Part shown: one piece after another, positions 1 to 25,334 of the stretch
Numbering within the stretch: the first letter of the stretch is position 1
Layout of the letters: each line of letters begins with the position of its first letter
Assembly (NCBI GenBank): GCA_051531975.1
Contig: JAOPTT010000024.1
Location: forward strand, 1 to 28,644
DNA: 28,644 nucleotides
Origin: Spirochaetaceae bacterium
GTDB taxonomy: Bacteria; Spirochaetota; Spirochaetia; DSM-2461
Direction of reading: 5' to 3'
Program-made: the position numbers and the translations under genes
The notes under the pieces: generated by a model
Seen by the model: the letters and a program-made list of their open reading frames with translations, nothing else
Databases searched by the model: none
What the model was told of the DNA's origin: nothing

Positions 1-1
1 C

Positions 2-1675
2 TAAAGTGATATCTTCATCTAAAGTGATATCTTCATCTAAAGTGATATCTTCATCTAAGTTAATTTCTTCATCAAAGTTGAACTCTTCATCTAAATTAAC
101 ATCTTCATCAATGTTAAAATCTTCATCTAAACTAATTTCATCACTTATATTAGTGTCTTCATCAAAGTTAAACTCTTCATCTAAATTAACATCTTCATCA
201 ATGTTAAAATCTTCATCTAAACTAATTTCATCACTTATATTGATATCTTCATCAAGACTAATTTCATCACTTATATTGATATCTTCATCAATGTTAAAAT
301 CTTCATCTAAACTAATTTCATCACTTATATTGATATCTTCATCAAGGTTCAACTCTTCTTCTAAACTAATTTCATCACTTATATTGATATCTTCATTAAG
401 GTTCAACTCTTCTTCTAAACTAATTTCATCACTTATATTAATATCTTCATTAAGGTTCAACTCTTCTTCTAGACTAATTTCATCACTTATATTGATATCT
501 TCATCAAGGTTCAACTCATCATCAAGACTAATTTCATCACTTAAATTGATATCTTCTTCAAGGTTTAACTCCTCATCTAAGTTTATATCATCAAGCTGGT
601 CTAAATTAAATTCACCATCAATATCAATATCATCTAGATTTATTTCATCACTTGATGCTTCAAATGCATGTTCTAAATCCTGAAGTTCATCCTCCATGGA
701 TATGGATTCTTCAGTTTGTAAATCCATCTCATTGCTTATGTCATCTATATCAAATTCACTTGTTACATCATCTGTTTTAAAATCAACAGTGGTTTCTTGT
801 TCTGTTTCGTCAGTAATTTCTACATCAATATCATTTTCATTCCCAAATGGATCATTACCTGGGAAATCTTCTTTACTAATTACAACATCATCTTCAGGAG
901 GATTATCTTTAAAATTATTTTTAGTATTTAGCTTTTCTTCTCTCATTTTTAATATTTGAGTTTCAGATAGTTCTGTTACTTTTGTAGTATCAATACCTGG
1001 TAATTCTTCAGAAAATTCATCCTCTTCAGAAGAAGTTAATGTTTCAAAAGCAGGGTCTTCTTCCATAAATATAGATGTATCTTCAAGCAGTGGATCATTT
1101 AATATCTCTTCAGATTGAACTTCATCTTCCGGCAGTATTTCAATCTGATCCCTATTAACATCTAACTCTTCTTTGTTTATAATCTCTTCTGTATCAATTT
1201 GTGCTAAAGGGTTATCAGTATCTATTTCTGAAGTTTCTTCAACAAGACTGTCTAAGTTATCAAGTTCATCAAATGTTAATGTTATTGAATCCTCTTCTAA
1301 ATCATTAAAGAAACCAGTTTGTTCTTCAGAAGTTGTTGGTTCAGCACTAGTTGGTTCAGTAGCAGTCTCAATCACTGGCGGTACAGGAGTTGTTGTACTT
1401 GGTATATTTTTAATTGCAGCAATTTCATTTTTTAAATCATGAATTTCACGACTCAGATTTATAAGTTCATGGTTTAGAGATTTTATTGCTTCAATAGAAT
1501 CAATTGGTAAACTCATAGGGTCTGTACTATCTTCAATTGAATCGAAGTCGTCTTCTTGGTTATCGTAATCATCCATCTCTTCATCAATTTCTACCTCTCC
1601 AGTTAAATCTGTTTTATCAGTAAATGTTCCGTAGAGCTCAAAATCATCAGGATTTTTAGTTAAATCTGCTGCCAT
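2..1675 (-). CDS. Large, highly acidic repeat-containing hypothetical protein (partial; 3' end lies beyond the left window edge; at least 558 codons)
   Basis: Manual translation from ATG at 1675 (GAGG SD upstream) is open without a stop to position 2: MAADLTKNPDDFELYG...IKSLNHELINLSREIHDLKNEIAAIK (coiled coil)...GFFNDLEEDSITLTFDELDNL...LDEDITLDEDITL. It is absent from the ORF track because no stop codon falls inside the window. Confidence 0.9.
   Translation of the reverse strand, partial: MAADLTKNPDDFELYGTFTDKTDLTGEVEIDEEMDDYDNQEDDFDSIEDSTDPMSLPIDSIEAIKSLNHELINLSREIHDLKNEIAAIKNIPSTTTPVPPVIETATEPTSAEPTTSEEQTGFFNDLEEDSITLTFDELDNLDSLVEETSEIDTDNPLAQIDTEEIINKEELDVNRDQIEILPEDEVQSEEILNDPLLEDTSIFMEEDPAFETLTSSEEDEFSEELPGIDTTKVTELSETQILKMREEKLNTKNNFKDNPPEDDVVISKEDFPGNDPFGNENDIDVEITDETEQETTVDFKTDDVTSEFDIDDISNEMDLQTEESISMEDELQDLEHAFEASSDEINLDDIDIDGEFNLDQLDDINLDEELNLEEDINLSDEISLDDELNLDEDINISDEISLEEELNLNEDINISDEISLEEELNLNEDINISDEISLEEELNLDEDINISDEISLDEDFNIDEDINISDEISLDEDINISDEISLDEDFNIDEDVNLDEEFNFDEDTNISDEISLDEDFNIDEDVNLDEEFNFDEEINLDEDITLDEDITLDEDITL
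5..580 (-). repeat. Coding tandem repeat: 32 degenerate 18-bp units (hexapeptide phi-D/E/S-D/E-D/E-phi-N/S/T) with higher-order structure
   Basis: Units read LDEELN, LEEDIN, LSDEIS, LDDELN, LDEDIN, ISDEIS, LEEELN, LNEDIN, ISDEIS ... LDEDFN, IDEDVN, LDEEFN ... LDEDIT x3. The plus strand shows ctaaagtgatatcttcat three times at 1-54. Confidence 0.95.
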
Positions 1676-2794: not shown

Positions 2795-3604
2795 TTATTC
2801 TATAATTTTACCTTTCAAACCAGATTTCATAATATCGTTGTTTTGCAGAGTTTCTCTGTTTAACTTTTCTCTTTCATGTAGTAAATGTATAGGAACTTGA
2901 TAAGCTTCTTCTATTTTCTCATTAATTAGCATATCTTCTTTTTTCCCAATACTAACAGTTCCATCTTTATAGAATAAAGCTACATTATCGCAGAACTTCT
3001 TTGAAATATCTAAGTCATGTATAGAATAAATAATACTTATTTTATGTTCTTTAGCATATTGGATAACATATTTAAAGACTTTATCTTTCTGATGATTTTC
3101 TAATGCAAATACCGGTTCGTCCATTAATATAATTGGTGAGCCAAATAGTAGTGCAAAAGCTATAACAACTCTTTGCATTTCACCTTTACTTGCGCTATTT
3201 GTCTTTTTATTAAGAGACTCTTTTAATTCAAAAATATTAATTATCTCTTCAATTAATTTTTTATCAGCTTTCTTTGAATGGTGGCCATTGTTATAGACCA
3301 TTTCTAATAGATCGCCAATTGTCTCCTCTGTATCAAATTCCATATTTTGAAATATAATTGAAGCTTTACTGTTTAGTTCTTCTTCGTCGGTTATATCTTT
3401 TGTATTTTTATCAAGTAGTAGAATTTCTCCATTTTCTGGTAAAAGTCTACCTGCAGCTAATAACATTAGTGTAGATTTTCCAGTTCCATTCTGGCCAATA
3501 AATGTTGTAACTCCAGGTGGAATTTCTAATGATAAATTTTTAAAGACATCTTTATCTTCCTGGTATCCAAAAAGAATATTTTTAATAGATATTATGCTGC
3601 TCAT
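2795..3604 (-). CDS. ABC transporter ATP-binding protein (orphan, degenerate signature motif)
   Basis: Walker A GQNGTGKST, Q-loop IFQN, signature ASKGE (canonical LSGGQ), Walker B ILMDEP, H-switch SIHD. AGGAG SD. Confidence 0.9.
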   Translation of the reverse strand: MSSIISIKNILFGYQEDKDVFKNLSLEIPPGVTTFIGQNGTGKSTLMLLAAGRLLPENGEILLLDKNTKDITDEEELNSKASIIFQNMEFDTEETIGDLLEMVYNNGHHSKKADKKLIEEIINIFELKESLNKKTNSASKGEMQRVVIAFALLFGSPIILMDEPVFALENHQKDKVFKYVIQYAKEHKISIIYSIHDLDISKKFCDNVALFYKDGTVSIGKKEDMLINEKIEEAYQVPIHLLHEREKLNRETLQNNDIMKSGLKGKIIE

Positions 3605-3678
3605 TATTGCTCCTAGGCTAATTTATGATCTATTTTACTTAAAAAGATCAATCCTATGCAACAACTGATTAACTTGGC

Positions 3679-3707
3679 TTGATAAAACTATAAAAAAACT
3701 TCAAAAT
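3679..3707 (+). promoter_or_regulatory. Sigma70-like promoter of pfkA (probably leaderless transcript)
   Basis: TTGATA-N17-CAAAAT, with the ATG 6 nt downstream and no SD. Confidence 0.5.
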
Positions 3708-3713
3708 ATAAAT

Positions 3714-5036
3714 ATGAAGAAATTAGACTTTAGTATAGAAACATTAGGTCCTTGTAAGATTGAGTCACCTATTCCATTAAAAACTAATATGGATGAAGCT
3801 CATGCTTCTTTTGTTAATGATGACGAAAGAGTTCTCCACGAAATTGTCTATCATGAGGGTAGTTCAAAAAATCGTGAAGATTATATAAAAGATAATCTTA
3901 TGGAGAAGGCAGGACCAAGGAAACATATTTATTTCCAGTCAAATCATATTCATGCTGGAATCATAACTTGTGGTGGACTTTGTCCAGGATTAAATGATGT
4001 TATTCGTGCTATTGTTCGATCCTTATGGTACGAATATGGGGTCCGGAGAATAACTGGTATTCGTTATGGTTACCAAGGTCTAGATCCTAAACAGAATATG
4101 CCATTTAAAGAGTTAGATCCCGATGTCGTTGACGATATACATAAAATGGGTGGAACAATGCTAGGTTCTTCTAGAGGTGGACCATCAGTTGAAACTAGAG
4201 TTGATACCATAGAGCGTATGAATTTAAATATGTTATTTGTTATTGGTGGAGATGGTACTCAACGTGGTGCATTAGCAATGGCTGATGAGATCGAAAAAAG
4301 AGGCCTTAAAATAGCTATTATCGGTGTTCCAAAAACTATAGATAACGATATCGCATTTATTCAAAAGTCTTTTGGTGTGGAAACTGCTGTAGCAGAAGCT
4401 TTAAATGCTGTCTACTCAGCACATACAGAGGCTAAAGATGCCATAGATGGAATTGGTCTAGTTAAAGTAATGGGTCGAGAATCCGGCTTTATTGCCGCTC
4501 ATACAGCACTTGCAACAAATGATGCTAACTTTGTATTGGTACCTGAAGTTAAATTTGAATTAGATGGTCCTAATGGGCTTTTAGAAGCACTAGATAGAAG
4601 GCTAGAGAAAAAGTTCCATGCAGTTATCTTGGTGGCTGAAGGGGCAGGGCAGGAGTTATTAGATGGCTCTAACGATACTGATGCTTCAGGTAATAAGAAA
4701 CTTTCTGATATTGGTGTATTTTTAGCTAATGCAATAAAGACACATAGGAAGAAGATTGGGAAACCATCAAATCTTAAATATATAGATCCTAGTTACATGA
4801 TACGGGCAGCAGCAGCAACACCTAATGATTCCCTATATTGTGCTAGACTTGGTGGTAATGCAGTACATGCTGCTATGGCCGGTAAAACAAAAATGCTAAT
4901 TAGCATGTGGAACTATCATTTAGTGCATGTTCCTATAAGTCTTGCAATTTCAAATAGAAAGGTTTTAGATCCCAAGGGTCCACTTTGGAGAGATGTTTTA
5001 TCTACTACAAGAATGCCTTTATCGATGACAAATTAA
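3714..5036 (+). CDS. pfkA: ATP-dependent 6-phosphofructokinase (GGDG/PKTIDND type, group X)
   Basis: TCGGLCPGLN, IGGDGT, PKTIDND, MGRESGFIA and YIDPSYMIR motifs. Confidence 0.95.
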   Translation: MKKLDFSIETLGPCKIESPIPLKTNMDEAHASFVNDDERVLHEIVYHEGSSKNREDYIKDNLMEKAGPRKHIYFQSNHIHAGIITCGGLCPGLNDVIRAIVRSLWYEYGVRRITGIRYGYQGLDPKQNMPFKELDPDVVDDIHKMGGTMLGSSRGGPSVETRVDTIERMNLNMLFVIGGDGTQRGALAMADEIEKRGLKIAIIGVPKTIDNDIAFIQKSFGVETAVAEALNAVYSAHTEAKDAIDGIGLVKVMGRESGFIAAHTALATNDANFVLVPEVKFELDGPNGLLEALDRRLEKKFHAVILVAEGAGQELLDGSNDTDASGNKKLSDIGVFLANAIKTHRKKIGKPSNLKYIDPSYMIRAAAATPNDSLYCARLGGNAVHAAMAGKTKMLISMWNYHLVHVPISLAISNRKVLDPKGPLWRDVLSTTRMPLSMTN

Positions 5037-5095: not shown

Positions 5096-6661
5096 TTATA
5101 TTAATATTGATGCATATGTACTAAGTACTTCATCCATTTGATTATTTAAAACTTTACCGGCTAATAATTTACCTAATTGAACACCCTCTTGATCAAAAGA
5201 GTTTATATTCCAAATAAAACCTTGAAACATTACTTTGTTCTCAAAATGAGCTAAAATTGCACCCATAATTTCTGGAGTTAATTTGTCAGCATAAAGTAGA
5301 GATATTGGTCTCTCTCCATCAAAGTTTTTATTTAGGTTTGTATCATCCTTACCAAGTCCCATTGCTGTCATCTGCGCAACAAGGTTTGCATTAAGTTTTT
5401 TCTCACTTGTTGAACCTTGGAATACAATGTCTGAATCAATTTGTGGAGTTTTAAAACCAATAAATTGAACTGGAATAATAGTTGTTGCTTGGTGGATATA
5501 TTGGAAAAATGAGTGTTGAGAGTTTGTCCCAGGTTCACCAAAAATAGAAGGTCCAGTTGAATAGTTAACTCTTTCACCAAATCGATTAACAGTTTTACCG
5601 TTACTTTCCATATCTAGTTGCTGTAGGTGAGCAGGGAATCTACACATTGATTCTGAATATGGAATTACAGCAGTATTTGTCATTTTTAATACATTATTTT
5701 CATAAACACCAATAAGTGCATCAGCTAAAGCTGCATTTTCAAAAATATTGCTGTTTAATGCTTGTTTATCAGCTTCTCTAGCTCCAGTTAAAAATCTTTC
5801 GAATATTTCTGTTCCTAATGCTAAAGATAATATACAGCCACCAACTGCACTAGTTGATGAATATCTACCACCAATATTATCATCTATAAAAAATGAATCT
5901 AGGTAGTTATCATCACCTGCTAAAGGACTTGTAGCAGATGTTACACAAACAAAATGTTTAAGAGGATTTAAACCTGTAATTTGAGCTTCTTCCATTTTAG
6001 TTAAAACAAATTTTTGATTAGTTAATGTTTCTTGTGTATTACCACTTTTTGAAACTAATACAAAAAGAGTTTTTTCAAAGTCTAAACCGTTTAATACATT
6101 GTTTGCATCATCAGGATCAACATTTGCTATAAAATGTGCAGCCATTACTGGAGTATCGTAGTTTTTTAGAGCTAAATACATAGCTCTTGGCCCTAAATCA
6201 GAACCACCAATTCCAACTTGTACTACAGTTTCAAATTTCTTTCCTGTGGAACCTAAAATATTTCCAGAGTGAACTTTTTTAACAAAATCATAAACCTTTG
6301 TTTTTTCTCCAGTGTAAAATTCTGTCATATCTTGACCATCAATTGATACAGAGTTAAGTTTTGTTTCTCGTGTATGGTGATGAAGAACCTTTCGACCTTC
6401 ACCAGTATTTATTACATCACCATTTAAAAGTGACGTATATTTTTCGATAAGTTGTTGTTCCTCTGCTAATCCTTGAAGAAGGTCTAAACATTTTGCATCT
6501 ACTTTTTTCCCAGCAAAGTTATAAGTTAACCCGGCACCTGCAGGCGCACTTAATTTGGAAATTCTAGTTGGGTTTAACTCACTTTTTATTGAGCAAACCG
6601 GAGTCTCTAATAATTGTTTGTAATTCTTTGACTCACTAAGATTTGTATAATTTATTGACAT
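5096..6661 (-). CDS. pgi: Glucose-6-phosphate isomerase
   Basis: GIGGSDLGP, SKSGNTQET, GGRYSSTSAVG, QQLDMESNGK, GTNSQHSFFQ and FDQEGVQLGK motifs. AGGAG SD. Confidence 0.97.
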   Translation of the reverse strand: MSINYTNLSESKNYKQLLETPVCSIKSELNPTRISKLSAPAGAGLTYNFAGKKVDAKCLDLLQGLAEEQQLIEKYTSLLNGDVINTGEGRKVLHHHTRETKLNSVSIDGQDMTEFYTGEKTKVYDFVKKVHSGNILGSTGKKFETVVQVGIGGSDLGPRAMYLALKNYDTPVMAAHFIANVDPDDANNVLNGLDFEKTLFVLVSKSGNTQETLTNQKFVLTKMEEAQITGLNPLKHFVCVTSATSPLAGDDNYLDSFFIDDNIGGRYSSTSAVGGCILSLALGTEIFERFLTGAREADKQALNSNIFENAALADALIGVYENNVLKMTNTAVIPYSESMCRFPAHLQQLDMESNGKTVNRFGERVNYSTGPSIFGEPGTNSQHSFFQYIHQATTIIPVQFIGFKTPQIDSDIVFQGSTSEKKLNANLVAQMTAMGLGKDDTNLNKNFDGERPISLLYADKLTPEIMGAILAHFENKVMFQGFIWNINSFDQEGVQLGKLLAGKVLNNQMDEVLSTYASILI

Positions 6662-6684
6662 GTTACTTTCTCCTATTTTATCTA

Positions 6685-6713
6685 AGTTTATTACTCTGAA
6701 AAATAAAAGTCTA
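6685..6713 (-). promoter_or_regulatory. Sigma70-like promoter of pgi
   Basis: TAGACT-N17-TAAACT on the minus strand, upstream of the SD. Confidence 0.5.
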
Positions 6714-6725
6714 TATACGGGATGT

Positions 6726-8351
6726 TTATTTTATTTGAAATAAATTTATATTAGAAATATTGAATGCATTTCCAGATGTTTCTCTATTACCAAAACCTAA
6801 TCTACCATTTAATTCAACAGGTATATTGAAGCTATCTAATATCTGAGTATCATCTATTTTCATAGTAAGTTTACCATCGGATATTTGCAGATAATAATCT
6901 CCATTAATACCATTTTCAGTTGATAAAGTATTAGTATAAAGAACCTCTGAATTTTCATCTAATCCGTTTTGTGTAATATTAACTAATACATTACTTAATC
7001 CAGTCTTAGTTAAGGAGATTATGACACCATCGGACCAACTTTTAAAACGTCCATTACCATAAAGAATTATTAGACACTCTCCATTGTTTTTGAAATCAGC
7101 ATTAAACAGTATTGTATTGTTGTTTCCAATAGAGTTTCTACTCCATGCTATAGAGTTAACTTTCATCCCATTAAATGCTAGCTGTTTACCTTCCGACGTC
7201 CAAAGTGCAGGTATGTGAACCCAACTTGTATCAATAGGTGTATCTGGTGTTAGAGTACTTCTAAATACGGTTTTCTCTTGTTTTGTAAGTTCTTCTCGCA
7301 GTTTTTTTTCTAACTCTTCAAGACTTAAACTTTTTTCTGCAGCAGCATCTAATTCTGCTTGTTCTAGTTCTGCTGCTGCATCTAGTTCTGCTTGCTCTCG
7401 TTCAGCAAGTGTCATCTCTTCATTTGTGAGATTTAACTCGTCTAACGCCTCTTGAAGTTTTAGGCTTTCACTTTCTCTAAGTGCGGCTAATTGTTCCTCA
7501 AGATCTTTTAACATCAGATCTTTTTGATTAGTTAATTGTGAGTTTAGATCAGTAGTATTGTTTTTATCAACAAGAGTTAAATATTTGTTAATTGTTGTTT
7601 TAAGTTTTTCAACAGATGAATTTGTAATAAGTAGATCTTTATCGTCTATATTACCTAAAAACTTATTTTCATTAACTAGTGTTGCTATATTTTTTAACCC
7701 TTCATGGTATTCATTGGATCTATCTAATAATTGTTGAGTAAAGTTTTTTGATAACGATGTTCGGTTTGTTTGTATGTTTTCTACTAAATCATCTAAATAT
7801 AATAAGCCTCGTCGATTTCTAAACGCGATATTTATTTCATTTATATCTTTTTCTGAAAAACTATTTGATGTTAAAGTATCTTGTAGTGTTGAGACATAAT
7901 TTGTAAATTCTTCATTTACCTGATCTAATTCAACTCCCATTCTACTATTACTTTCCATGAGTTCAGAGAGTTGTAACTGGTCATTCTGGGATTTCTTTTG
8001 TGCAACTCTTCTCTCATTTTCACTATTTTTAACCCTATCTTGAACAGCTTTAGATTCTTCTTCTAAAGCTCTAAGTTTATCTTCTATTGCCTTTAATTCA
8101 GCAGAATCAGTTGTAGTTGATCTCATATTTCTTAATCTTTCTGCTTCTAAAAGAATTTGTTTATTTCGTTCAATTAAAATCTGTTCATGGTCTGCAATAA
8201 GTTTAAATATTATATTTTCTATCTCTTTTTCTTGAATTGTAGGTTTTTTATCAATAAAATAATCATTATTTAAGTAGGTATATAAAAATGCATTTGACGC
8301 TACAAATAATGTAAGAACTATAAAAATTGGTATGTTTGTATTTACTTTCAT
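6726..8351 (-). CDS. Hypothetical membrane-anchored protein: N-terminal TM, long coiled-coil stalk, C-terminal beta-sandwich (ConA/DUF1080-like) domain
   Basis: Hydrophobic residues ~7-27, E/L/K/Q-rich helical region to about residue 360, and a beta-rich C-terminus ending GRLGFGN...FNISNINLF. Its GGAGG SD overlaps the cyclase stop codon. Confidence 0.8.
   Translation of the reverse strand: MKVNTNIPIFIVLTLFVASNAFLYTYLNNDYFIDKKPTIQEKEIENIIFKLIADHEQILIERNKQILLEAERLRNMRSTTTDSAELKAIEDKLRALEEESKAVQDRVKNSENERRVAQKKSQNDQLQLSELMESNSRMGVELDQVNEEFTNYVSTLQDTLTSNSFSEKDINEINIAFRNRRGLLYLDDLVENIQTNRTSLSKNFTQQLLDRSNEYHEGLKNIATLVNENKFLGNIDDKDLLITNSSVEKLKTTINKYLTLVDKNNTTDLNSQLTNQKDLMLKDLEEQLAALRESESLKLQEALDELNLTNEEMTLAEREQAELDAAAELEQAELDAAAEKSLSLEELEKKLREELTKQEKTVFRSTLTPDTPIDTSWVHIPALWTSEGKQLAFNGMKVNSIAWSRNSIGNNNTILFNADFKNNGECLIILYGNGRFKSWSDGVIISLTKTGLSNVLVNITQNGLDENSEVLYTNTLSTENGINGDYYLQISDGKLTMKIDDTQILDSFNIPVELNGRLGFGNRETSGNAFNISNINLFQIK
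7335..7400 (-). repeat. 33-bp (11-aa) imperfect tandem duplication within the coiled-coil stalk
   Basis: REQAELDAAAE / LEQAELDAAAE. Plus strand: ttctgcagcagcatctaattctgcttgttctag / ttctgctgctgcatctagttctgcttgctctcg. Confidence 0.85.
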
Positions 8352-8359
8352 AATTCCTC

Positions 8360-10390
8360 CTATTTCTCGATCTCAATAAATCCGTATTGTATCCAATCAT
8401 CTGATGGCTCTTGTATCTGATGAGAATCTTTTTTAAACCATAACTTTGTATTACTTTTATACTCTTCAAACTCTGTTACAGTTACTATTCTAGAAATATA
8501 TTTTTCCATTGTTGGTATCGGTTCTTCTAAATATGCAGTTTTAATAGCTTGTAACGTATCTTCCCATTTTTTTAATGCTATTGCTCTAAATTGTTTTTTA
8601 TCCACTACAGTTTTAGCTATTGAATATGATTTCCACAATGATATTCCAGCTGTAAAGCTATCCATAATTTTTTGTATATGTGATAAAGCATCATTATTTA
8701 TATATTTATTGTTTCCTAAAAATCGTGATTGAACTCCATTGTTTCCAAGAATTGTATATAACTCCTTTGGAACTTTCTTCCCCTTAGGTCTTACTTTATC
8801 TACTTTATAGAAAGATAGATGAGGATTCATATCTTTTAAGTTATTTTTAGTATTATTCCTCACGGTTTCAGTCATTAATATATTTGTTTGGTACTGTTTA
8901 TTTATCGCTTCTAATCTAGCTGATGTATTAACTGTATCACCAATAACTCCAAGTTCATAATTGTTTTCAGTACCAGTTTTACCATAAACAATTTTACCAT
9001 AATCTAGTCCAACCCTAAAATTAAAATCAATTTTTAAAGTTTTTTGTAGGTCATTTACTTTCTCAAGAATTAAAATCGCACTTTTTAATGCATAAAAAGA
9101 TGAATTGTGTTTCCTTTCACCTTCTTGGAAAATGATTAAACAGGCATCACCAATATATTTATTAATTTTACCGTAATTTGCTTCTACTACTTTTTCTACT
9201 TCTACCCAAATAGAGTTAACAATAGTAAAAACCTTTTCTTGATAAAGTTCGGTTAGAGTTGTAAACCCTTTTATATCAAGGAATAAAACTGTCATAAATT
9301 CTTCGTGGGGATCAAGTATACTTGTTGATTCCATAAGAACCGCAGATAATAACTCTTTATCTGAAATACCAGCTACAATTTCTCCTAAAGAGTTTAACTG
9401 CTGATGCAGACTAGAATATGCAGAATATAAAATTGAAGTTTCATTAAAGTTAGTATATACATCCTCAACCTTTTTCTTAACAAGACCACTTTTTTTAATC
9501 TTTTCACCTTCTCTAGTTATTATGGTACTTATAGATGCTATCTCTCTTGTTATTTTACTTGTAGTTATTAGTTTTATTGTAACAACTAAAATAAATACAA
9601 ACATTAATATACCTAAAAAGGTATTTCTAACTTTGTTAATCAGATAGAAAAAGTCACTACTTAGATCGGCTATAACAAAAATAGGATATGTCGGAGTTAT
9701 TCCATCAGCATTAATAAGACTATGTTGGGCATACTCTGCAATTCCAATATATTTTTTATTATCAAATGTATATTCAAAACTTACTGTGTTGTTTAGTTTA
9801 TATTTTTGACCATTAGATATTCTGGTATAGTTATCTCTATCTTCTATAGTAGGGATAATAACTAGATCGTAGGTTTTATCGTTACTTTTTTTGTATAAGG
9901 TATTTATATAAGATTTATCATCACTATTTTTACTGTTATTTAAGAGGGATAGATAAACTTCAGAGGCTATTGTTGCTGGAATGTGTGAAGCATTTAGTAA
10001 TATTTGATTTCGAAGTTCTTTGCTGAAATTTATAGTAAAACCGGGATCATTCTTTTTTCCAGAATACTCTTCTAAACCTTCAATATCAGTTAAAATTGCC
10101 AATATACTATCATCGTATTTAACTTTGTTAATTCCTGACTCTTTACTATAAACCAATATGTCATCTAAATAATCAAAGTAAACTAATGTATCTTTGTTTT
10201 CTAAATAATCAAGAGAGTTAAAGTATTCCGCTTCTATTGAGTCCAGTTTCTCATAAAAGTCTGTATTACTAGAGTTTGAGATTATATTTTTTATTACTAC
10301 CTCAAACATAAGATAAGTTGAAATGAATACTACAATGAATGTAATAATATCCCAAAATATCAGCGAAGATTTTATATGTATTTTTTTCAT
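8360..10390 (-). CDS. Membrane-bound class III adenylate/guanylate cyclase (TM - extracytoplasmic sensor - TM - HAMP-like - cyclase - C-terminal extension)
   Basis: VLFLDIKGFT, INKYIGDA, FRVGLDYG and GVIGDTVNTSARLE motifs, two TM segments. Start moved to ATG 10390 (MKKIHIK) because the ORF-track TTG at 10429 is the -35 box. Confidence 0.93.
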   Translation of the reverse strand: MKKIHIKSSLIFWDIITFIVVFISTYLMFEVVIKNIISNSSNTDFYEKLDSIEAEYFNSLDYLENKDTLVYFDYLDDILVYSKESGINKVKYDDSILAILTDIEGLEEYSGKKNDPGFTINFSKELRNQILLNASHIPATIASEVYLSLLNNSKNSDDKSYINTLYKKSNDKTYDLVIIPTIEDRDNYTRISNGQKYKLNNTVSFEYTFDNKKYIGIAEYAQHSLINADGITPTYPIFVIADLSSDFFYLINKVRNTFLGILMFVFILVVTIKLITTSKITREIASISTIITREGEKIKKSGLVKKKVEDVYTNFNETSILYSAYSSLHQQLNSLGEIVAGISDKELLSAVLMESTSILDPHEEFMTVLFLDIKGFTTLTELYQEKVFTIVNSIWVEVEKVVEANYGKINKYIGDACLIIFQEGERKHNSSFYALKSAILILEKVNDLQKTLKIDFNFRVGLDYGKIVYGKTGTENNYELGVIGDTVNTSARLEAINKQYQTNILMTETVRNNTKNNLKDMNPHLSFYKVDKVRPKGKKVPKELYTILGNNGVQSRFLGNNKYINNDALSHIQKIMDSFTAGISLWKSYSIAKTVVDKKQFRAIALKKWEDTLQAIKTAYLEEPIPTMEKYISRIVTVTEFEEYKSNTKLWFKKDSHQIQEPSDDWIQYGFIEIEK

Positions 10391-10400
10391 AGTTATCCTA

Positions 10401-10429
10401 ATAATAGATTTGTGATATTTAAGAGTCAA
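10401..10429 (-). promoter_or_regulatory. Sigma70-like promoter of the cyclase operon
   Basis: TTGACT-N17-TATTAT, ending 10 nt before ATG 10390. Confidence 0.6.
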
Positions 10430-10497
10430 TTCTTTTTAAGAAATATGATGTATTTTAACGTATTTAAGTCGATAATTACCATATGGAGGATAATTAA

Positions 10498-11916
10498 TTG
10501 AGAAGATTACGATTACCACTGATAATTCTAATGTTAGTTTTTATATTTTCGGTTATGTTTCATCTCTTTTATTTAAAAGATATTGATACTATATTTTCTA
10601 TGCAATCACCATGGACTTTAACCGCACTTATAATTGCTACAGCATTCTTTTTTCTAAAAACATTAGATGTTGTATTTTGGACACCTTCTAGAAACTCTGG
10701 GTTTATTAAGACTCCAAGACTTTTTATTGATGTTCTAAATTTTATTTTGTTAGCTATTGTTATTTTAATATTAGTTAGTCAAATATTTCATAAACCAATT
10801 ACTGGTATTCTTGCCGCTTCAGGTGCTCTAGGTGTTATTGTTGGTTTAAGTATGCAAAGAATGCTTGCCGATCTATTTACAGGTGTTGCAATCAATATGG
10901 ATAATACCATAAAACTTATGGATTGGATTGAGTATAATAAACCAAATGGGGATCCTATAATTGGACAAGTTAGAGAGGTAAACTGGAGAACTGTAAAACT
11001 ACTAACTTATGATAATAATATTGTTGTTATTCCAAACGGAGCATTAGCAACAGATTCTATAAAAAACTTTTCAAATCCTACTAGTAAATCAATGTTTATC
11101 ATAGATTTAACTATGGACTTTGAAGTCCCAAGTGCTAGAGTCTTAACTCTACTTGAAGCAGCTGTTATATCTGTTAAAGAAGTTCTTGAAAATCCAAAAC
11201 CTAAAATTTATATTGATTGTGTTACAGAGCGGGGAGTTCAGTACGCTGTTAGATTTTGGTTAGATATTAATGTTGTGAATATTTTTGAAGGAAAGCACTT
11301 GGTATATAATAGTGCTTTAAAACATCTGCACCAAGGTGGATTAAGTTTATCATATTCAAAACATGACATATATTATAAGCCAATGCCTACTAGACAGTTG
11401 GATCGACATAGAGATATCGGTCCTTTACTAAAACGAGTTCCATTGTTCACTATGTTAAATAATAGTGAATTAAATATTATACATAAAGGTGTTTCTGAAG
11501 TAGCAGTTAATCGTGGGGAGGCTGTAGTTAGAGCAGGGGAAGCAGGTTCTTCTATGTTTATATTAGTGGAAGGGGCTATGAATGTAATAGTCGACAAAAT
11601 TACTAATGGTAAAATTAAGAAAATAAAAGTTAATCAATTAGTACCAGGTGATTTTTTTGGAGAGATGTCTCTGTTAACTGGAGAACCACGGTCTGCTTAT
11701 GTTATAGCTAGAACTGATTCAATTTTATATGAAATCAAGAAAAAAACTATAATGCAAGTATTAAAAGGTCGTCCAGAAGTTAGTCGTAAATTATCTAGAA
11801 TTCTGGCTGATAGAGTTATGTCAAATGAAAGTGCAAAAATTAAATATAAAGATAATAAAGCAAAACTTGCTTCCACCCTATTTTCAAGGATGAAAGAGTT
11901 TTTCTTCGGTATCTAA
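10498..11916 (+). CDS. MscS-family channel with C-terminal cyclic-nucleotide-binding domain (bCNG-like)
   Basis: MscS motifs ASGALGVIVGLSMQRMLADLFTGV, GQVREVNWRTVKL and IPNG. CNBD motifs VPLF..L, GEAGSSMFILVEG and GDFFGEMSLLTGEPRSA. GGAGGA SD with TTG start. Confidence 0.93.
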   Translation: MRRLRLPLIILMLVFIFSVMFHLFYLKDIDTIFSMQSPWTLTALIIATAFFFLKTLDVVFWTPSRNSGFIKTPRLFIDVLNFILLAIVILILVSQIFHKPITGILAASGALGVIVGLSMQRMLADLFTGVAINMDNTIKLMDWIEYNKPNGDPIIGQVREVNWRTVKLLTYDNNIVVIPNGALATDSIKNFSNPTSKSMFIIDLTMDFEVPSARVLTLLEAAVISVKEVLENPKPKIYIDCVTERGVQYAVRFWLDINVVNIFEGKHLVYNSALKHLHQGGLSLSYSKHDIYYKPMPTRQLDRHRDIGPLLKRVPLFTMLNNSELNIIHKGVSEVAVNRGEAVVRAGEAGSSMFILVEGAMNVIVDKITNGKIKKIKVNQLVPGDFFGEMSLLTGEPRSAYVIARTDSILYEIKKKTIMQVLKGRPEVSRKLSRILADRVMSNESAKIKYKDNKAKLASTLFSRMKEFFFGI

Positions 11917-11920
11917 TATA

Positions 11921-13189
11921 TTACTCTTTATGGTACTGGGCAGCCATTGCTAACATTTCTGCCGCAGGACCACTTTCTCCATCTTTATTTTTATGAACCA
12001 TAGCTACAACACCAGTTGATAGACCAAAAAGGTTAATAAAACCTTGGGCATCATTATGATCATAATCTGACTCTCCAAATGATGCTAGGTCTTCTAGATA
12101 CAGTGAATATGGTGATTTTCGTCCAGTTATTAGAACATTTCCTTTATATAACACTACTCTAATAGAACCAGTAACAAACTCACTGGTTTTCTCCATAAAT
12201 GCTTCTAAACTTTCTCTAGCAGTAGTATACCACTTTCCAGCATAAACTAGATTTGAATAGTCAATACTAAGTTTTTGTTTTAAATCTAATGTATCTCTAT
12301 CTAAAGTTACCATTTCAAGATCTCTAGTTGCTTCGTGTAGAATTGTTCCAGCTGGAGTTTCATAGACACCACGGCTCTTCATTCCAACTAATCTAGTTTC
12401 AACAATATCTTTTCGACCAATACCATTTTCATGACCAAGTTTATTTAGTTTTTCTAGAATAGAGAAGGCTGACATCTTCTTTCCATCTAAACCAACAGGG
12501 ATACCTTTTTCAAAGTCTATAACTACTTCAGCTTCTACATCTGGGGCATCTTTAGGAGATTTTGTTAATAAAAACATATCTTCTTTTGGTCTGTTCCATA
12601 AATCTTCTAGGTCCCCACCTTCATGACTCATGTGCCAAATATTCCAGTCTCTTGAGTATATTTTTTCTTTAGTTACTGTAAGTTCAATTCCACGCTCTTT
12701 AGCAAAATCAATTGCATCTTCTCGAGATTTAATATCCCAAACTCTCCAGGGAGCGATTACTTCTAATTCAGGAGCTAACGCTTTATATGTAAGTTCAAAT
12801 CTTACTTGGTCGTTACCTTTTCCTGTACAACCGTGACAAAGAGCATCACAACCTTCGGCTAAAGCAATTTCAACTTGATGTTTTGACTGTAAGGGTCTCG
12901 CAATTGAAGTTCCTAAAAGGTATTTACCTTCGTAGATAGCTCCCGCTCTAACCATTGGGAAAATATACTCTGCAGCTAATTCTTCTTTTATATCTTTTAT
13001 ATATAATTTTGAAGCTCCGGATTTTAAGGCTTTAGCTTCCATATTAGCCCAGTCTTCATCCTGTCCCACATTTGTACAAATACCTATGATTTCAGCACCT
13101 TCGTACTGTTCTTTTAACCAAGGGATAATAATTGAAGTATCTAACCCTCCAGAATAAGCTAATGCTATCTTTTTAATTTTTTTTGCCAT
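11921..13189 (-). CDS. argG: Argininosuccinate synthase
   Basis: LAYSGGLDTS, HGCTGKGNDQVRFE, SHEGG and KSRGVYETPAG motifs. Confidence 0.98.
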   Translation of the reverse strand: MAKKIKKIALAYSGGLDTSIIIPWLKEQYEGAEIIGICTNVGQDEDWANMEAKALKSGASKLYIKDIKEELAAEYIFPMVRAGAIYEGKYLLGTSIARPLQSKHQVEIALAEGCDALCHGCTGKGNDQVRFELTYKALAPELEVIAPWRVWDIKSREDAIDFAKERGIELTVTKEKIYSRDWNIWHMSHEGGDLEDLWNRPKEDMFLLTKSPKDAPDVEAEVVIDFEKGIPVGLDGKKMSAFSILEKLNKLGHENGIGRKDIVETRLVGMKSRGVYETPAGTILHEATRDLEMVTLDRDTLDLKQKLSIDYSNLVYAGKWYTTARESLEAFMEKTSEFVTGSIRVVLYKGNVLITGRKSPYSLYLEDLASFGESDYDHNDAQGFINLFGLSTGVVAMVHKNKDGESGPAAEMLAMAAQYHKE

Positions 13190-24240: not shown

Positions 24241-24270
24241 AAAGTCGACCTTTGGGTCGGCTTTTTTTTT
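24241..24270 (+). terminator. Intrinsic terminator after secF
   Basis: AAAGTCGACC-TTTG-GGTCGGC followed by T9. Confidence 0.85.
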
Positions 24271-24281
24271 GGAGTTTATTT

Positions 24282-25334
24282 ATGAAGGTTTTTGGTTTTA
24301 TACTTTTATTATTAACAACATCACATCTATATTCTGAAATATCCCTCTCTGAAATTCAAGGTTCAGGATGGAGTGATAAACAGGTCGGAAACATCACTTA
24401 TTATACTAAAAAAGATTATGGACGAGTTCCTATCTTATGTTTTCACAAAATTGGAGATGCTGAAAGATACGAAATAACCTCAGAAAATTTCAAAAACTTC
24501 TTAATATATTTAAATGATAATAAATATTACCCAATCTCGGATAAAGATTTTTTAAACAGAGACTTTGCTAAAGTTCCAACAGGCTATAAACCTATTGTTT
24601 TAGGTTCTGATGATGCCTCAGAGGGTAATTTTATATATAAAACAAACGATGACTCAATTTATGGAGAACTTGATTTAAGCACAGGTAAACCAGAACATGA
24701 TCCAAATTCAATGGTTTATCTACTTGAGAAATTTATTAGACCTGAAGATGGAAATATAAATTTTACTTTTTACATCTCCTTTAATGGTATCCCTTTTAGG
24801 CAGACAGGTGGTGATAAGGCCACAGGGGAATATTTTCGTGGAATAGATCTTATTGGTCAAAAGTTTAACTACTTATTAGATAATTTTATAGTTGGTATTC
24901 ATACTGTAACTCACCCAGTAACTAAAAATACATCTGCAAAAGATTTTAAGTGGGAGATCGATGAGTTCTATAACATCTTATATTCATATGTTGGTGAAAG
25001 AATTAATCTTATTGATACCCTTGCTTATCCTTATGGATGCGCTAATTTAAAACCAGAAATGGAAAAAATGATAAAAAATTATAATACAAAGGGTGTAAAA
25101 ATAGTTGGAGCCTTTGATTTTGATGGTTATTTCAGTCAATCTCCATTTAGTTCTAAGATAAAGGACTTCGATATCTCACGTTTTGGCGTAGATAATAAAA
25201 ATATACAAAACTTATATGGTTTCTTAGAAAGTGTTCCTCAGTATAAAACTGAACGTATAATAGTTGTTAAATCCAAGACTGATTTACTGAATGTTAATAT
25301 TTCTGATGATGATATTGTAATGGTGGTTCCATGA
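24282..25334 (+). CDS. Secreted polysaccharide deacetylase (CE4/NodB-homology, PgaB/IcaB-like)
   Basis: Signal peptide, PILCFHKI, LGSDDA (TFDDG-equivalent), HTVTH metal motif, AYPYG. GGAG SD before ATG 24282. Confidence 0.8.
   Translation: MKVFGFILLLLTTSHLYSEISLSEIQGSGWSDKQVGNITYYTKKDYGRVPILCFHKIGDAERYEITSENFKNFLIYLNDNKYYPISDKDFLNRDFAKVPTGYKPIVLGSDDASEGNFIYKTNDDSIYGELDLSTGKPEHDPNSMVYLLEKFIRPEDGNINFTFYISFNGIPFRQTGGDKATGEYFRGIDLIGQKFNYLLDNFIVGIHTVTHPVTKNTSAKDFKWEIDEFYNILYSYVGERINLIDTLAYPYGCANLKPEMEKMIKNYNTKGVKIVGAFDFDGYFSQSPFSSKIKDFDISRFGVDNKNIQNLYGFLESVPQYKTERIIVVKSKTDLLNVNISDDDIVMVVP

Follow-up and report, generated by a model that had tools for sequence, protein, structure and literature searches.

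What do three signalling genes do between pgi and argG, two housekeeping genes, and do they act as one circuit? The question is raised by a marine spirochaete genome (G000, ~30% G+C), in which a stretch of 28,644 nucleotides (nt) on contig C24, referred to below as the window, encodes a membrane-bound class III nucleotide cyclase, a membrane-anchored protein directly behind it (here named the stalk) and, divergently, a channel of the MscS family fused to a cyclic-nucleotide-binding domain (CNBD). An earlier note on this DNA had described the genes as a self-contained circuit, in which a cyclic nucleoside monophosphate (cNMP) made by the cyclase acts on the channel. The three open reading frames (ORFs) were found where the note had placed them, with Pfam matches for the cyclase and the channel, while the circuit as proposed was not supported. 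Judged by gene order in relatives, the cyclase and the stalk are a conserved and rare two-gene module with an exchangeable head. With a probability of about 0.55 we favour a locus that is an envelope- or glycan-sensing operon of receptor cyclase and stalk, the channel being a dispensable local target.

The cyclase and the stalk as a conserved pair

The junction between the two genes is short, since the TAG of the cyclase is followed by GAGGAATT and then by the ATG of the stalk, and a Shine-Dalgarno sequence, AGGAGG, overlaps the stop codon; the translational coupling with an 8-nt gap that had been noted was thereby confirmed. The gap was compared with that in three congeners (G001, G002 and G003) and in genomes of two other spirochaete families (G226 and G299), these five genomes being 71–96% complete. 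It measures ~9-12 nt in G001 and G003, 13 nt in G226 and 19 nt in G299. G001 and G003 both carry argG first, then cyclase, stalk and pgi, all co-directional and with ~120-130 bp separating argG from the cyclase, and in G002 the cyclase is again followed by the stalk in a syntenic position, the contig ending within the cyclase.

The stalk is present in 4 of 41 genomes of relatives (G000 counted), including all three congeners, and no stalk was found in other genera among 38 genomes of the family, which as sampled equals the whole order. Searching 301 genomes sampled from the class, the cyclase was recovered at E ≤ 1e-60 in four, G000, G001, G299 and G226. In the latter two the cyclase is 38-43% identical and is followed by a protein with a transmembrane (TM) segment and coiled coil; the partner in G299 ends in a head with a GH43_C2/DUF1349 ConA-like domain (E 6e-22), and that in G226 runs off the contig, its N-terminal part matching the stalk profile with an hhalign probability of 73% (E 3e-5). 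Because the order of cyclase and partner is kept in the congeners, in G226 and in G299, where the head differs, the two genes are taken as a conserved pair with an exchangeable head, and the pairing that had been claimed was borne out in 3/3 congeners and, with a diverged stalk, in the two other families. Relatives of the stalk in the sampled genomes were found only where this cyclase occurs. When remote stalk-like proteins and remote cyclases of the protein database were compared, no contig of equal size linked them. Both the cyclase and the stalk searches returned proteins of one relative labelled Thiospirochaeta perfilievii, a species of which one strain has a published genome (PMC7380536).

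In G299 the surroundings of the pair (contig C148, L112 124-4169) include a gene for a FliL-domain protein (3567-4169, E 1.8e-7), convergent with the stalk-like gene, and before it a gene for a 1142-aa ankyrin-repeat protein with a match to F5/8 type C and to NAD glycohydrolase translocation F5/8 type C.

The catalytic domain of the cyclase matches PF00211 (E 3.7e-16), and its best alignment is with OaPAC, a photoactivated adenylate cyclase (5x4t, E 1.7e-13), with the metal-binding Asp in FLDIKG and in IGDA, the Lys in KYIGD and the Asn and Arg in VNTSARLE all present. We take the protein to be a class III nucleotide cyclase of the homodimer type, in which two predicted TM helices bracket a putative sensor, and its product is probably, with uncertainty, cyclic AMP (cAMP). 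It starts more probably at ATG 10390 than at TTG 10429, because the resulting 676 amino acids (aa) equal the length of the orthologues P0139 and P0140. For aa 1-300 an AlphaFold2 (AF2) model based on 31 aligned sequences reached a pLDDT of 88.1 and was run through VIA-align against 48,161 chains; the top matches were periplasmic sensor domains of chemoreceptors and kinases (6d8v, Z 10.2; 4wy9, Z 9.5; 3ub6, Z 9.4), followed by the extracellular domain of WalK (4ywz, Z 8.1). The fold matches further include 9a5d, a model of WalK with YycH. For the sCache and dCache chemoreceptor domains Z is 8-10.2 with 130-170 residues aligned, a range that the tool rates as middling, and the best Foldseek match of the same model has E 0.039. 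We read the ectodomain as a Cache/PDC-like sensor fold, in line with the ectodomain sensor proposed before. The Pfam scan gave neither a sensor family nor HAMP in the cyclase, and an ESM Atlas search with the conserved extension behind the catalytic domain (aa 541-676) yielded no usable lead (best score 0.89).

No Pfam family above cut-off was found for the stalk. Its prediction as a protein with TM anchor, coiled coil and beta-sandwich was upheld: one hydrophobic segment is followed by a stretch (aa 41-360) poor in Pro and Gly, of which aa 41-120 and 281-360 are charged and resemble a coiled coil in composition, and then by a head (aa 364-541) whose confident model is all-beta with a pLDDT of 90.6. 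With this head Foldseek found CBM66 (4b1m, E 1.2e-6, TM-score 0.62-0.66), and VIA placed the C-terminal beta-sandwich of levanase BT1760 highest (Z 17.2; 157 residues, root-mean-square deviation 2.7), ahead of CBM66 (14.5) and ERGIC-53 (14.3). The modelled head superposes on the ConA-like two-sheet jelly-roll beta-sandwich and is thus assigned a predicted lectin/glucanase fold of the ConA type, in keeping with the beta-sandwich of the earlier note.

An alignment of 17 stalk sequences revealed a variable middle between two conserved parts, the first 200 residues and the head. The family is small, with 17 members in a search of 5.8 billion proteins and 21 in 1.84 billion representatives, part of the latter set matching the N-terminal module (N-module) alone or the head alone; P0178, P0183 and P0186 carry the head in architectures without the N-module. 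The stalk of G000 also has a 15-aa insertion that produces the repeat AELDAAAELEQAELDAAAE (window 7320-7400, aa ~318-345) and is absent from 16/16 aligned orthologues. It looks like a recent in-frame duplication within the predicted coiled coil.

The channel, its losses and its possible inputs

The channel matches PF00924 (E 1.7e-15) and PF00027 (E 3e-19), phmmer pairs its aa 41-298 with chains of MscS and YnaI, and the phosphate-binding cassette of its CNBD, FGEMSLLTGEPRSA, aligns to FGERALLYDEPRSA of PKG and also to the CNBDs of PKA, which together bear out its description as an MscS channel fused to an intact CNBD. It is the only such fusion found in G000, where two other MscS-family genes occur. 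Channels of this kind are the bacterial cyclic-nucleotide-gated MscS homologues (bCNG; Caldwell et al. 2010 and Malcolm et al. 2012 as cited in PMC13591265), to which that review assigns an unknown physiological role and no structure.

When comparing the same site in the congeners, the channel is missing between argG and the cyclase in both complete loci (G001 and G003). No full-length orthologue was found in G001-G003, and when a channel profile of 12 sequences was run on G001, G002, G003, G226 and G299, each of the 34 matches covered one half of the fusion at most. The expectation that the three genes travel together in relatives is therefore upheld for cyclase and stalk and fails for the channel, which is missing from 2/2 complete congener loci, an MscS-CNBD fusion having been found in 0/5 other pair-bearing genomes; on these grounds the description of the locus as a self-contained or complete circuit is not supported.

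The protein database holds 11 channel orthologues at 56-71% identity, the next best match being at 40%. Four of them match cyclase orthologues in the size of their contig, namely P0139/P0122/P0005 (26995, the stalk included), P0146/P0006 (5269), P0147/P0008 (9078) and P0155/P0011 (5602). At the level of DNA, one contig of the metagenome run X1 (possibly the source sample) bridges the start of the cyclase, the intergenic region and the channel (1597 bases, ~80% identity, on 10071-10459 and 11081-11397). In a cyclase tree of 31 rows, made by a quick method and rooted on 13 remote rows, no single clade unites the five rows linked to a channel; the basal row is one of these scattered five, and G001 and G003 are nested among them. 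The channel was probably present in the ancestor of the genus and lost at least twice, because the channel-linked rows are scattered, one being basal, and the fewest state changes are two. Pairs with more similar cyclases also tend to have more similar channels (correlation of identities, Pearson 0.92 and Spearman 0.68), the 10 pairs being non-independent.

The number of other cyclases in the genome bears on how private the messenger could be. G000 has 29 PF00211 and 24 PF00027 matches, an unusually large set for cNMP signalling, and because of this the circuit is not self-contained, messenger and receptors not being private to the locus. Of all these CNBD matches, that in the channel of the window alone has a cyclase match at a distance of less than 5 kb, and because cyclases are so many in G000, a single adjacency of this kind is not improbable.

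Cyclase-channel neighbours were also looked for in other phyla, where a scan with generic CNBD patterns listed 80 loci, 30 with a match spanning both halves being kept and 50 with a CNBD match only being dropped. Among the matches listed there are distant channels only, at ≤33% full-length identity, and none of the orthologues at 56-71%. A class III cyclase lies in the fetched flanks of 7 of these 30 loci and within 2 kb in 3 of them (L037, 295 bp and divergent; L059, 142 bp and tandem; L039, 1.9 kb), the three being receptor cyclases, two with CHASE2 and one with dCache and HAMP; among the dropped loci listed, 5/50 had a cyclase-domain match. The adjacency of receptor cyclases and MscS-CNBD channels was thus seen outside the spirochaetes as well and is, as far as the listed matches and their domain assignments go, a recurrent minority arrangement. 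In the literature searched, which included few subscription papers, no description of a cyclase-bCNG gene pairing was found.

Layout of the locus and its surroundings

The coordinates of the genes and their parts are collected in Table 1.

Table 1. Features of the locus, with nucleotide positions counted from the first base of the window and amino acid positions from the start of each protein
Feature	Position	Strand	Size or basis
pgi	5096-6661	minus	Pfam
Stalk ORF	6726-8351	minus	541 aa; ORF listing
Stalk, TM anchor	aa 7-25	minus	one hydrophobic segment
Stalk, conserved helical N-module	to ~aa 200	minus	17-orthologue alignment
Stalk, variable Pro/Gly-poor helical stretch	to ~aa 360	minus	alignment and composition
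Stalk, predicted ConA-like beta-sandwich head	aa 364-541, nt 6729-7262	minus	structure model, Foldseek, VIA
Spacer between cyclase stop (TAG 8362-8360) and stalk ATG (8351)	8352-8359 (8 nt)	minus	sequence
Cyclase ORF	8360-10429 as listed (TTG start 10429); 8360-10390 from ATG 10390	minus	PF00211
Cyclase, TM1	aa 15-33	minus	hydrophobic segment
Cyclase, putative periplasmic Cache/PDC-like domain	~aa 34-256	minus	AF2 and VIA
Cyclase, TM2, then helical linker	aa 257-275	minus	hydrophobic segment
Cyclase, catalytic domain	~aa 365-540, nt 8771-9298	minus	PF00211
Cyclase, conserved C-terminal extension	aa 541-676	minus	135 aa; without recognised family
Divergent intergenic region, from cyclase ATG 10390 to channel start	10391-10497 (107 bp)	between strands	
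Channel ORF	10498-11916	plus	472 aa; TTG start behind GGAGG
Channel, four hydrophobic segments	aa 8-26, 41-59, 75-93, 101-119	plus	hydrophobicity
Channel, MscS beta-domain	nt 10864-11073	plus	Pfam
Channel, CNBD	nt 11503-11766	plus	Pfam
argG	11921-13189	minus	Pfam

The divergent region between cyclase and channel has the ~107 bp reported before if the cyclase starts at its ATG. When analysing this region, a promoter-like sequence TTGACT-17-TATTAT was identified on the minus strand (10429-10401), and the TATTAT ends only 10 nt before the ATG of the cyclase; a transcript from this site, were the TATTAT its -10 element, would have hardly any leader. The site taken alone is weak, because such promoter-like sites are no commoner than in shuffled sequence (32 found, 32.3 expected). 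A block TTGACTCT...CTATTATTA upstream of the cyclase is common to G000 and to the spacer between argG and the cyclase in the channel-less G003 (L006 6900-6960) and is not clearly present in G001. A TGTGA, a possible CRP half-site, was seen by eye in the intergenic region with no second half-site. One RNA run from the same sample matched at pgi only and is uninformative on the expression of the three genes.

According to Pfam the surrounding genes encode an argR-like repressor, a semialdehyde dehydrogenase, an amino-acid kinase, a class-III aminotransferase, argG, pgi, pfk, groEL, yajC, secDF and ispH, the dehydrogenase, kinase and aminotransferase probably being argC, argB and argD, judged by their order beside argG; among the Pfam matches of the window no mobile or defence genes were found in this neighbourhood. 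The stop codons of the channel and argG converge at a distance of 4 nt (11914-11923), and no intrinsic terminator-like hairpin was found in 6500-12100. Two further ORFs are recorded here. The one at 1-1675 (minus strand, 558 aa, open at the start of the window) gave several overlapping tblastn matches in G003 with its aa 302-558, which suggests an internally repetitive protein, and the one at 24252-25334 (plus strand, 360 aa), between secF and ispH, is without a Pfam family at E ≤ 1e-5. The genome of G000 measures 5.46 Mb versus 2.7-3.7 Mb in the three congeners, to be read with their completeness in mind.

Readings of the locus and comparison with known systems

In the reading that we favour, the core of the locus is the operon of receptor cyclase and translationally coupled periplasmic stalk. 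The conserved TM segment and N-module of the stalk may contact the TM and sensor region of the cyclase, by analogy with YycH and YycI and their partner WalK, and the head may read a glycan or another feature of the envelope and so set the synthesis of cNMP. This messenger would act on many CNBD proteins, including the adjacent channel where it is present, so that the bCNG-type channel would be one local and dispensable receiver in this lineage. The contact between cyclase and stalk, the ligand, the nucleotide and the gating of the channel by the cyclase are all inferred.

Several observations weigh against this picture. The Pfam scan gave no Cache match for the ectodomain, and its assignment draws on the middling Z of 8-10. 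At the position before GD, which we take to specify adenine and which is presumably Asp or Thr in known adenylate cyclases, the cyclase has Gly (GVIGD) versus Thr in OaPAC, as do all its relatives, and because of this Gly the product is left open. The N-terminus of the G299 partner matches the stalk profile weakly (hhalign probability 10.5%), and its head has no detectable sequence homology to that of the stalk; because of the latter, placing the two in the same family is a matter of position and architecture. As to the channel, its absence from both complete congener loci counts here too, as do the five other pair-bearing genomes in which no fusion was found and the 28 further cyclase-domain matches of G000 that could feed it, and its co-location with the cyclase in other relatives, apart from the X1 contig, was deduced from equal contig size and not from DNA.

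The closed three-part circuit, in which stalk and cyclase sense, the cNMP is made and the adjacent channel is the dedicated effector, all as one functional and evolutionary unit, draws on the divergent adjacency across a shared region of 107 bp, on an intact CNBD in the sole MscS-CNBD protein of G000, on at least four other assemblies and one X1 contig in which the two genes are probably still neighbours, and on receptor cyclases recurring beside such channels elsewhere. We nevertheless find it doubtful, as G001 and G003 keep the pair at the same site without the channel, no fusion was found in the five other pair-bearing genomes, 29 cyclase-domain and 24 CNBD matches share the genome, and in other phyla, among the matches listed, 23 of 30 MscS-CNBD loci have no cyclase in their fetched flanks. 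The opposite extreme, that the two genes are merely co-transcribed, the stalk being structural or glycan-binding with no regulatory link and the channel a chance neighbour that reads a global cAMP pool, would agree with the occurrence of the head without the N-module, and with ~28 cyclase genes, among which one adjacency to a CNBD is not improbable. It would leave unexplained a junction of 8-19 nt that three families retain although their stalks have diverged strongly, the restriction of stalk relatives in the sampled genomes to those with this cyclase, and the co-variation of channel and cyclase identities, and we regard it as unlikely.

Defence of the Pycsar type, which PMC11224242 describes as PycC with PycTM or PycTIR acting by abortive infection, was also put forward for this locus; a cyclic pyrimidine would be made upon infection and the CNBD membrane protein would permeabilise the membrane and kill the cell. 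The cyclase does match nine PADLOC PycC models at best with ~68-69.5 bits (68 bits for the protein, 69.5 for the catalytic domain), and the PycTIR effector models match the channel. As a control, however, 10 of 10 other cyclase domains of G000 match PycC models too, five of them with higher scores (86.9-105.9 bits), and because of this the match is generic; membership of the PycC clade was rejected, and the PADLOC check that had been suggested gave matches that are non-specific. The effector match is confined to the CNBD (aa 327-456), the membrane part being a full MscS channel. Cyclase and channel are divergent and not an operon, co-transcription joins the cyclase to the stalk instead, and the cyclase is a predicted two-TM receptor with a periplasmic sensor. 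Nor is the distribution patchy or island-like, since all three congeners keep the housekeeping neighbourhood (arg genes, pgi, pfk, groEL, secDF), no mobile or defence genes were found among the Pfam matches of the window, and inheritance looks vertical from the cyclase tree and the co-variation of cyclase and channel. A Pycsar-like function is therefore very improbable.

A bolder form of the operon reading, which we consider a long shot, is that the stalk is a probe spanning the periplasm: its head would bind a glycan of the peptidoglycan, the outer membrane or the flagellar sheath, the stalk would transmit distance or tension to the cyclase through TM contacts, the geometry would set the cNMP level, and the bCNG channel, where kept, would serve as a valve for the release of solutes. 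If so, this would be an envelope-to-turgor reflex, which is not known to have been described for any bacterium. The roles of bCNG channels are given as unknown in PMC13591265. A receptor cyclase next to one is a testable candidate input, even with the link between cyclase and channel being optional at this locus. The more original element is the dedicated stalk partner, a family of ~20 proteins in 1.84 billion representatives with a conserved membrane-proximal module and exchangeable lectin-fold heads; should it control the enzyme, the stalk would represent a type of accessory sensor that is new among class III cyclases. On the searches made here the stalk is a previously undescribed putative accessory protein and its neighbouring channel is of a known type.

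Set beside known systems, the channel resembles the bCNG channels in its MscS pore and beta-domain and in the CNBD at its C-terminus, whose phosphate-binding cassette is intact; it is a spirochaete member, 27-40% identical to matches outside its own clade, and its gating by a cNMP is putative. With Pycsar the locus shares a cyclase of class III fold beside a CNBD-bearing membrane protein and differs from it by the divergent genes, the receptor-type cyclase, the full MscS channel and the housekeeping synteny. Like the receptor-type class III adenylate cyclases that are linked to Cache, CHASE2 or HAMP, the cyclase has both metal-binding Asp residues, the substrate Lys, the transition-state Asn and Arg and two predicted TM helices around an ectodomain that is putatively PDC/Cache-like, OaPAC (5x4t) being the closest solved catalytic domain. 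It differs by the Gly in place of Asp or Thr, by a 135-aa extension without family, by having no Pfam sensor family or HAMP and by its dedicated downstream partner.

The head of this partner is alike in fold to the ConA-like sandwiches (the C-terminal domain of the GH32 endo-levanase BT1760, CBM66 and the L-type lectins ERGIC-53 and VIP36), whereas it is 11-14% identical to them, has no Pfam match and is mounted on a membrane-anchored helical stalk; binding of sugar is predicted at most. The arrangement as a whole recalls YycH and YycI with WalK, which we take to be an example of membrane-anchored accessory proteins encoded in the operon of their sensor. The likeness lies in the single-pass N-terminal anchor, the periplasmic body and the position directly after the sensor gene, while here a cyclase takes the place of the kinase as output, the partner bears its lectin-fold head on a long helical stalk, and the proteins have no sequence relationship.

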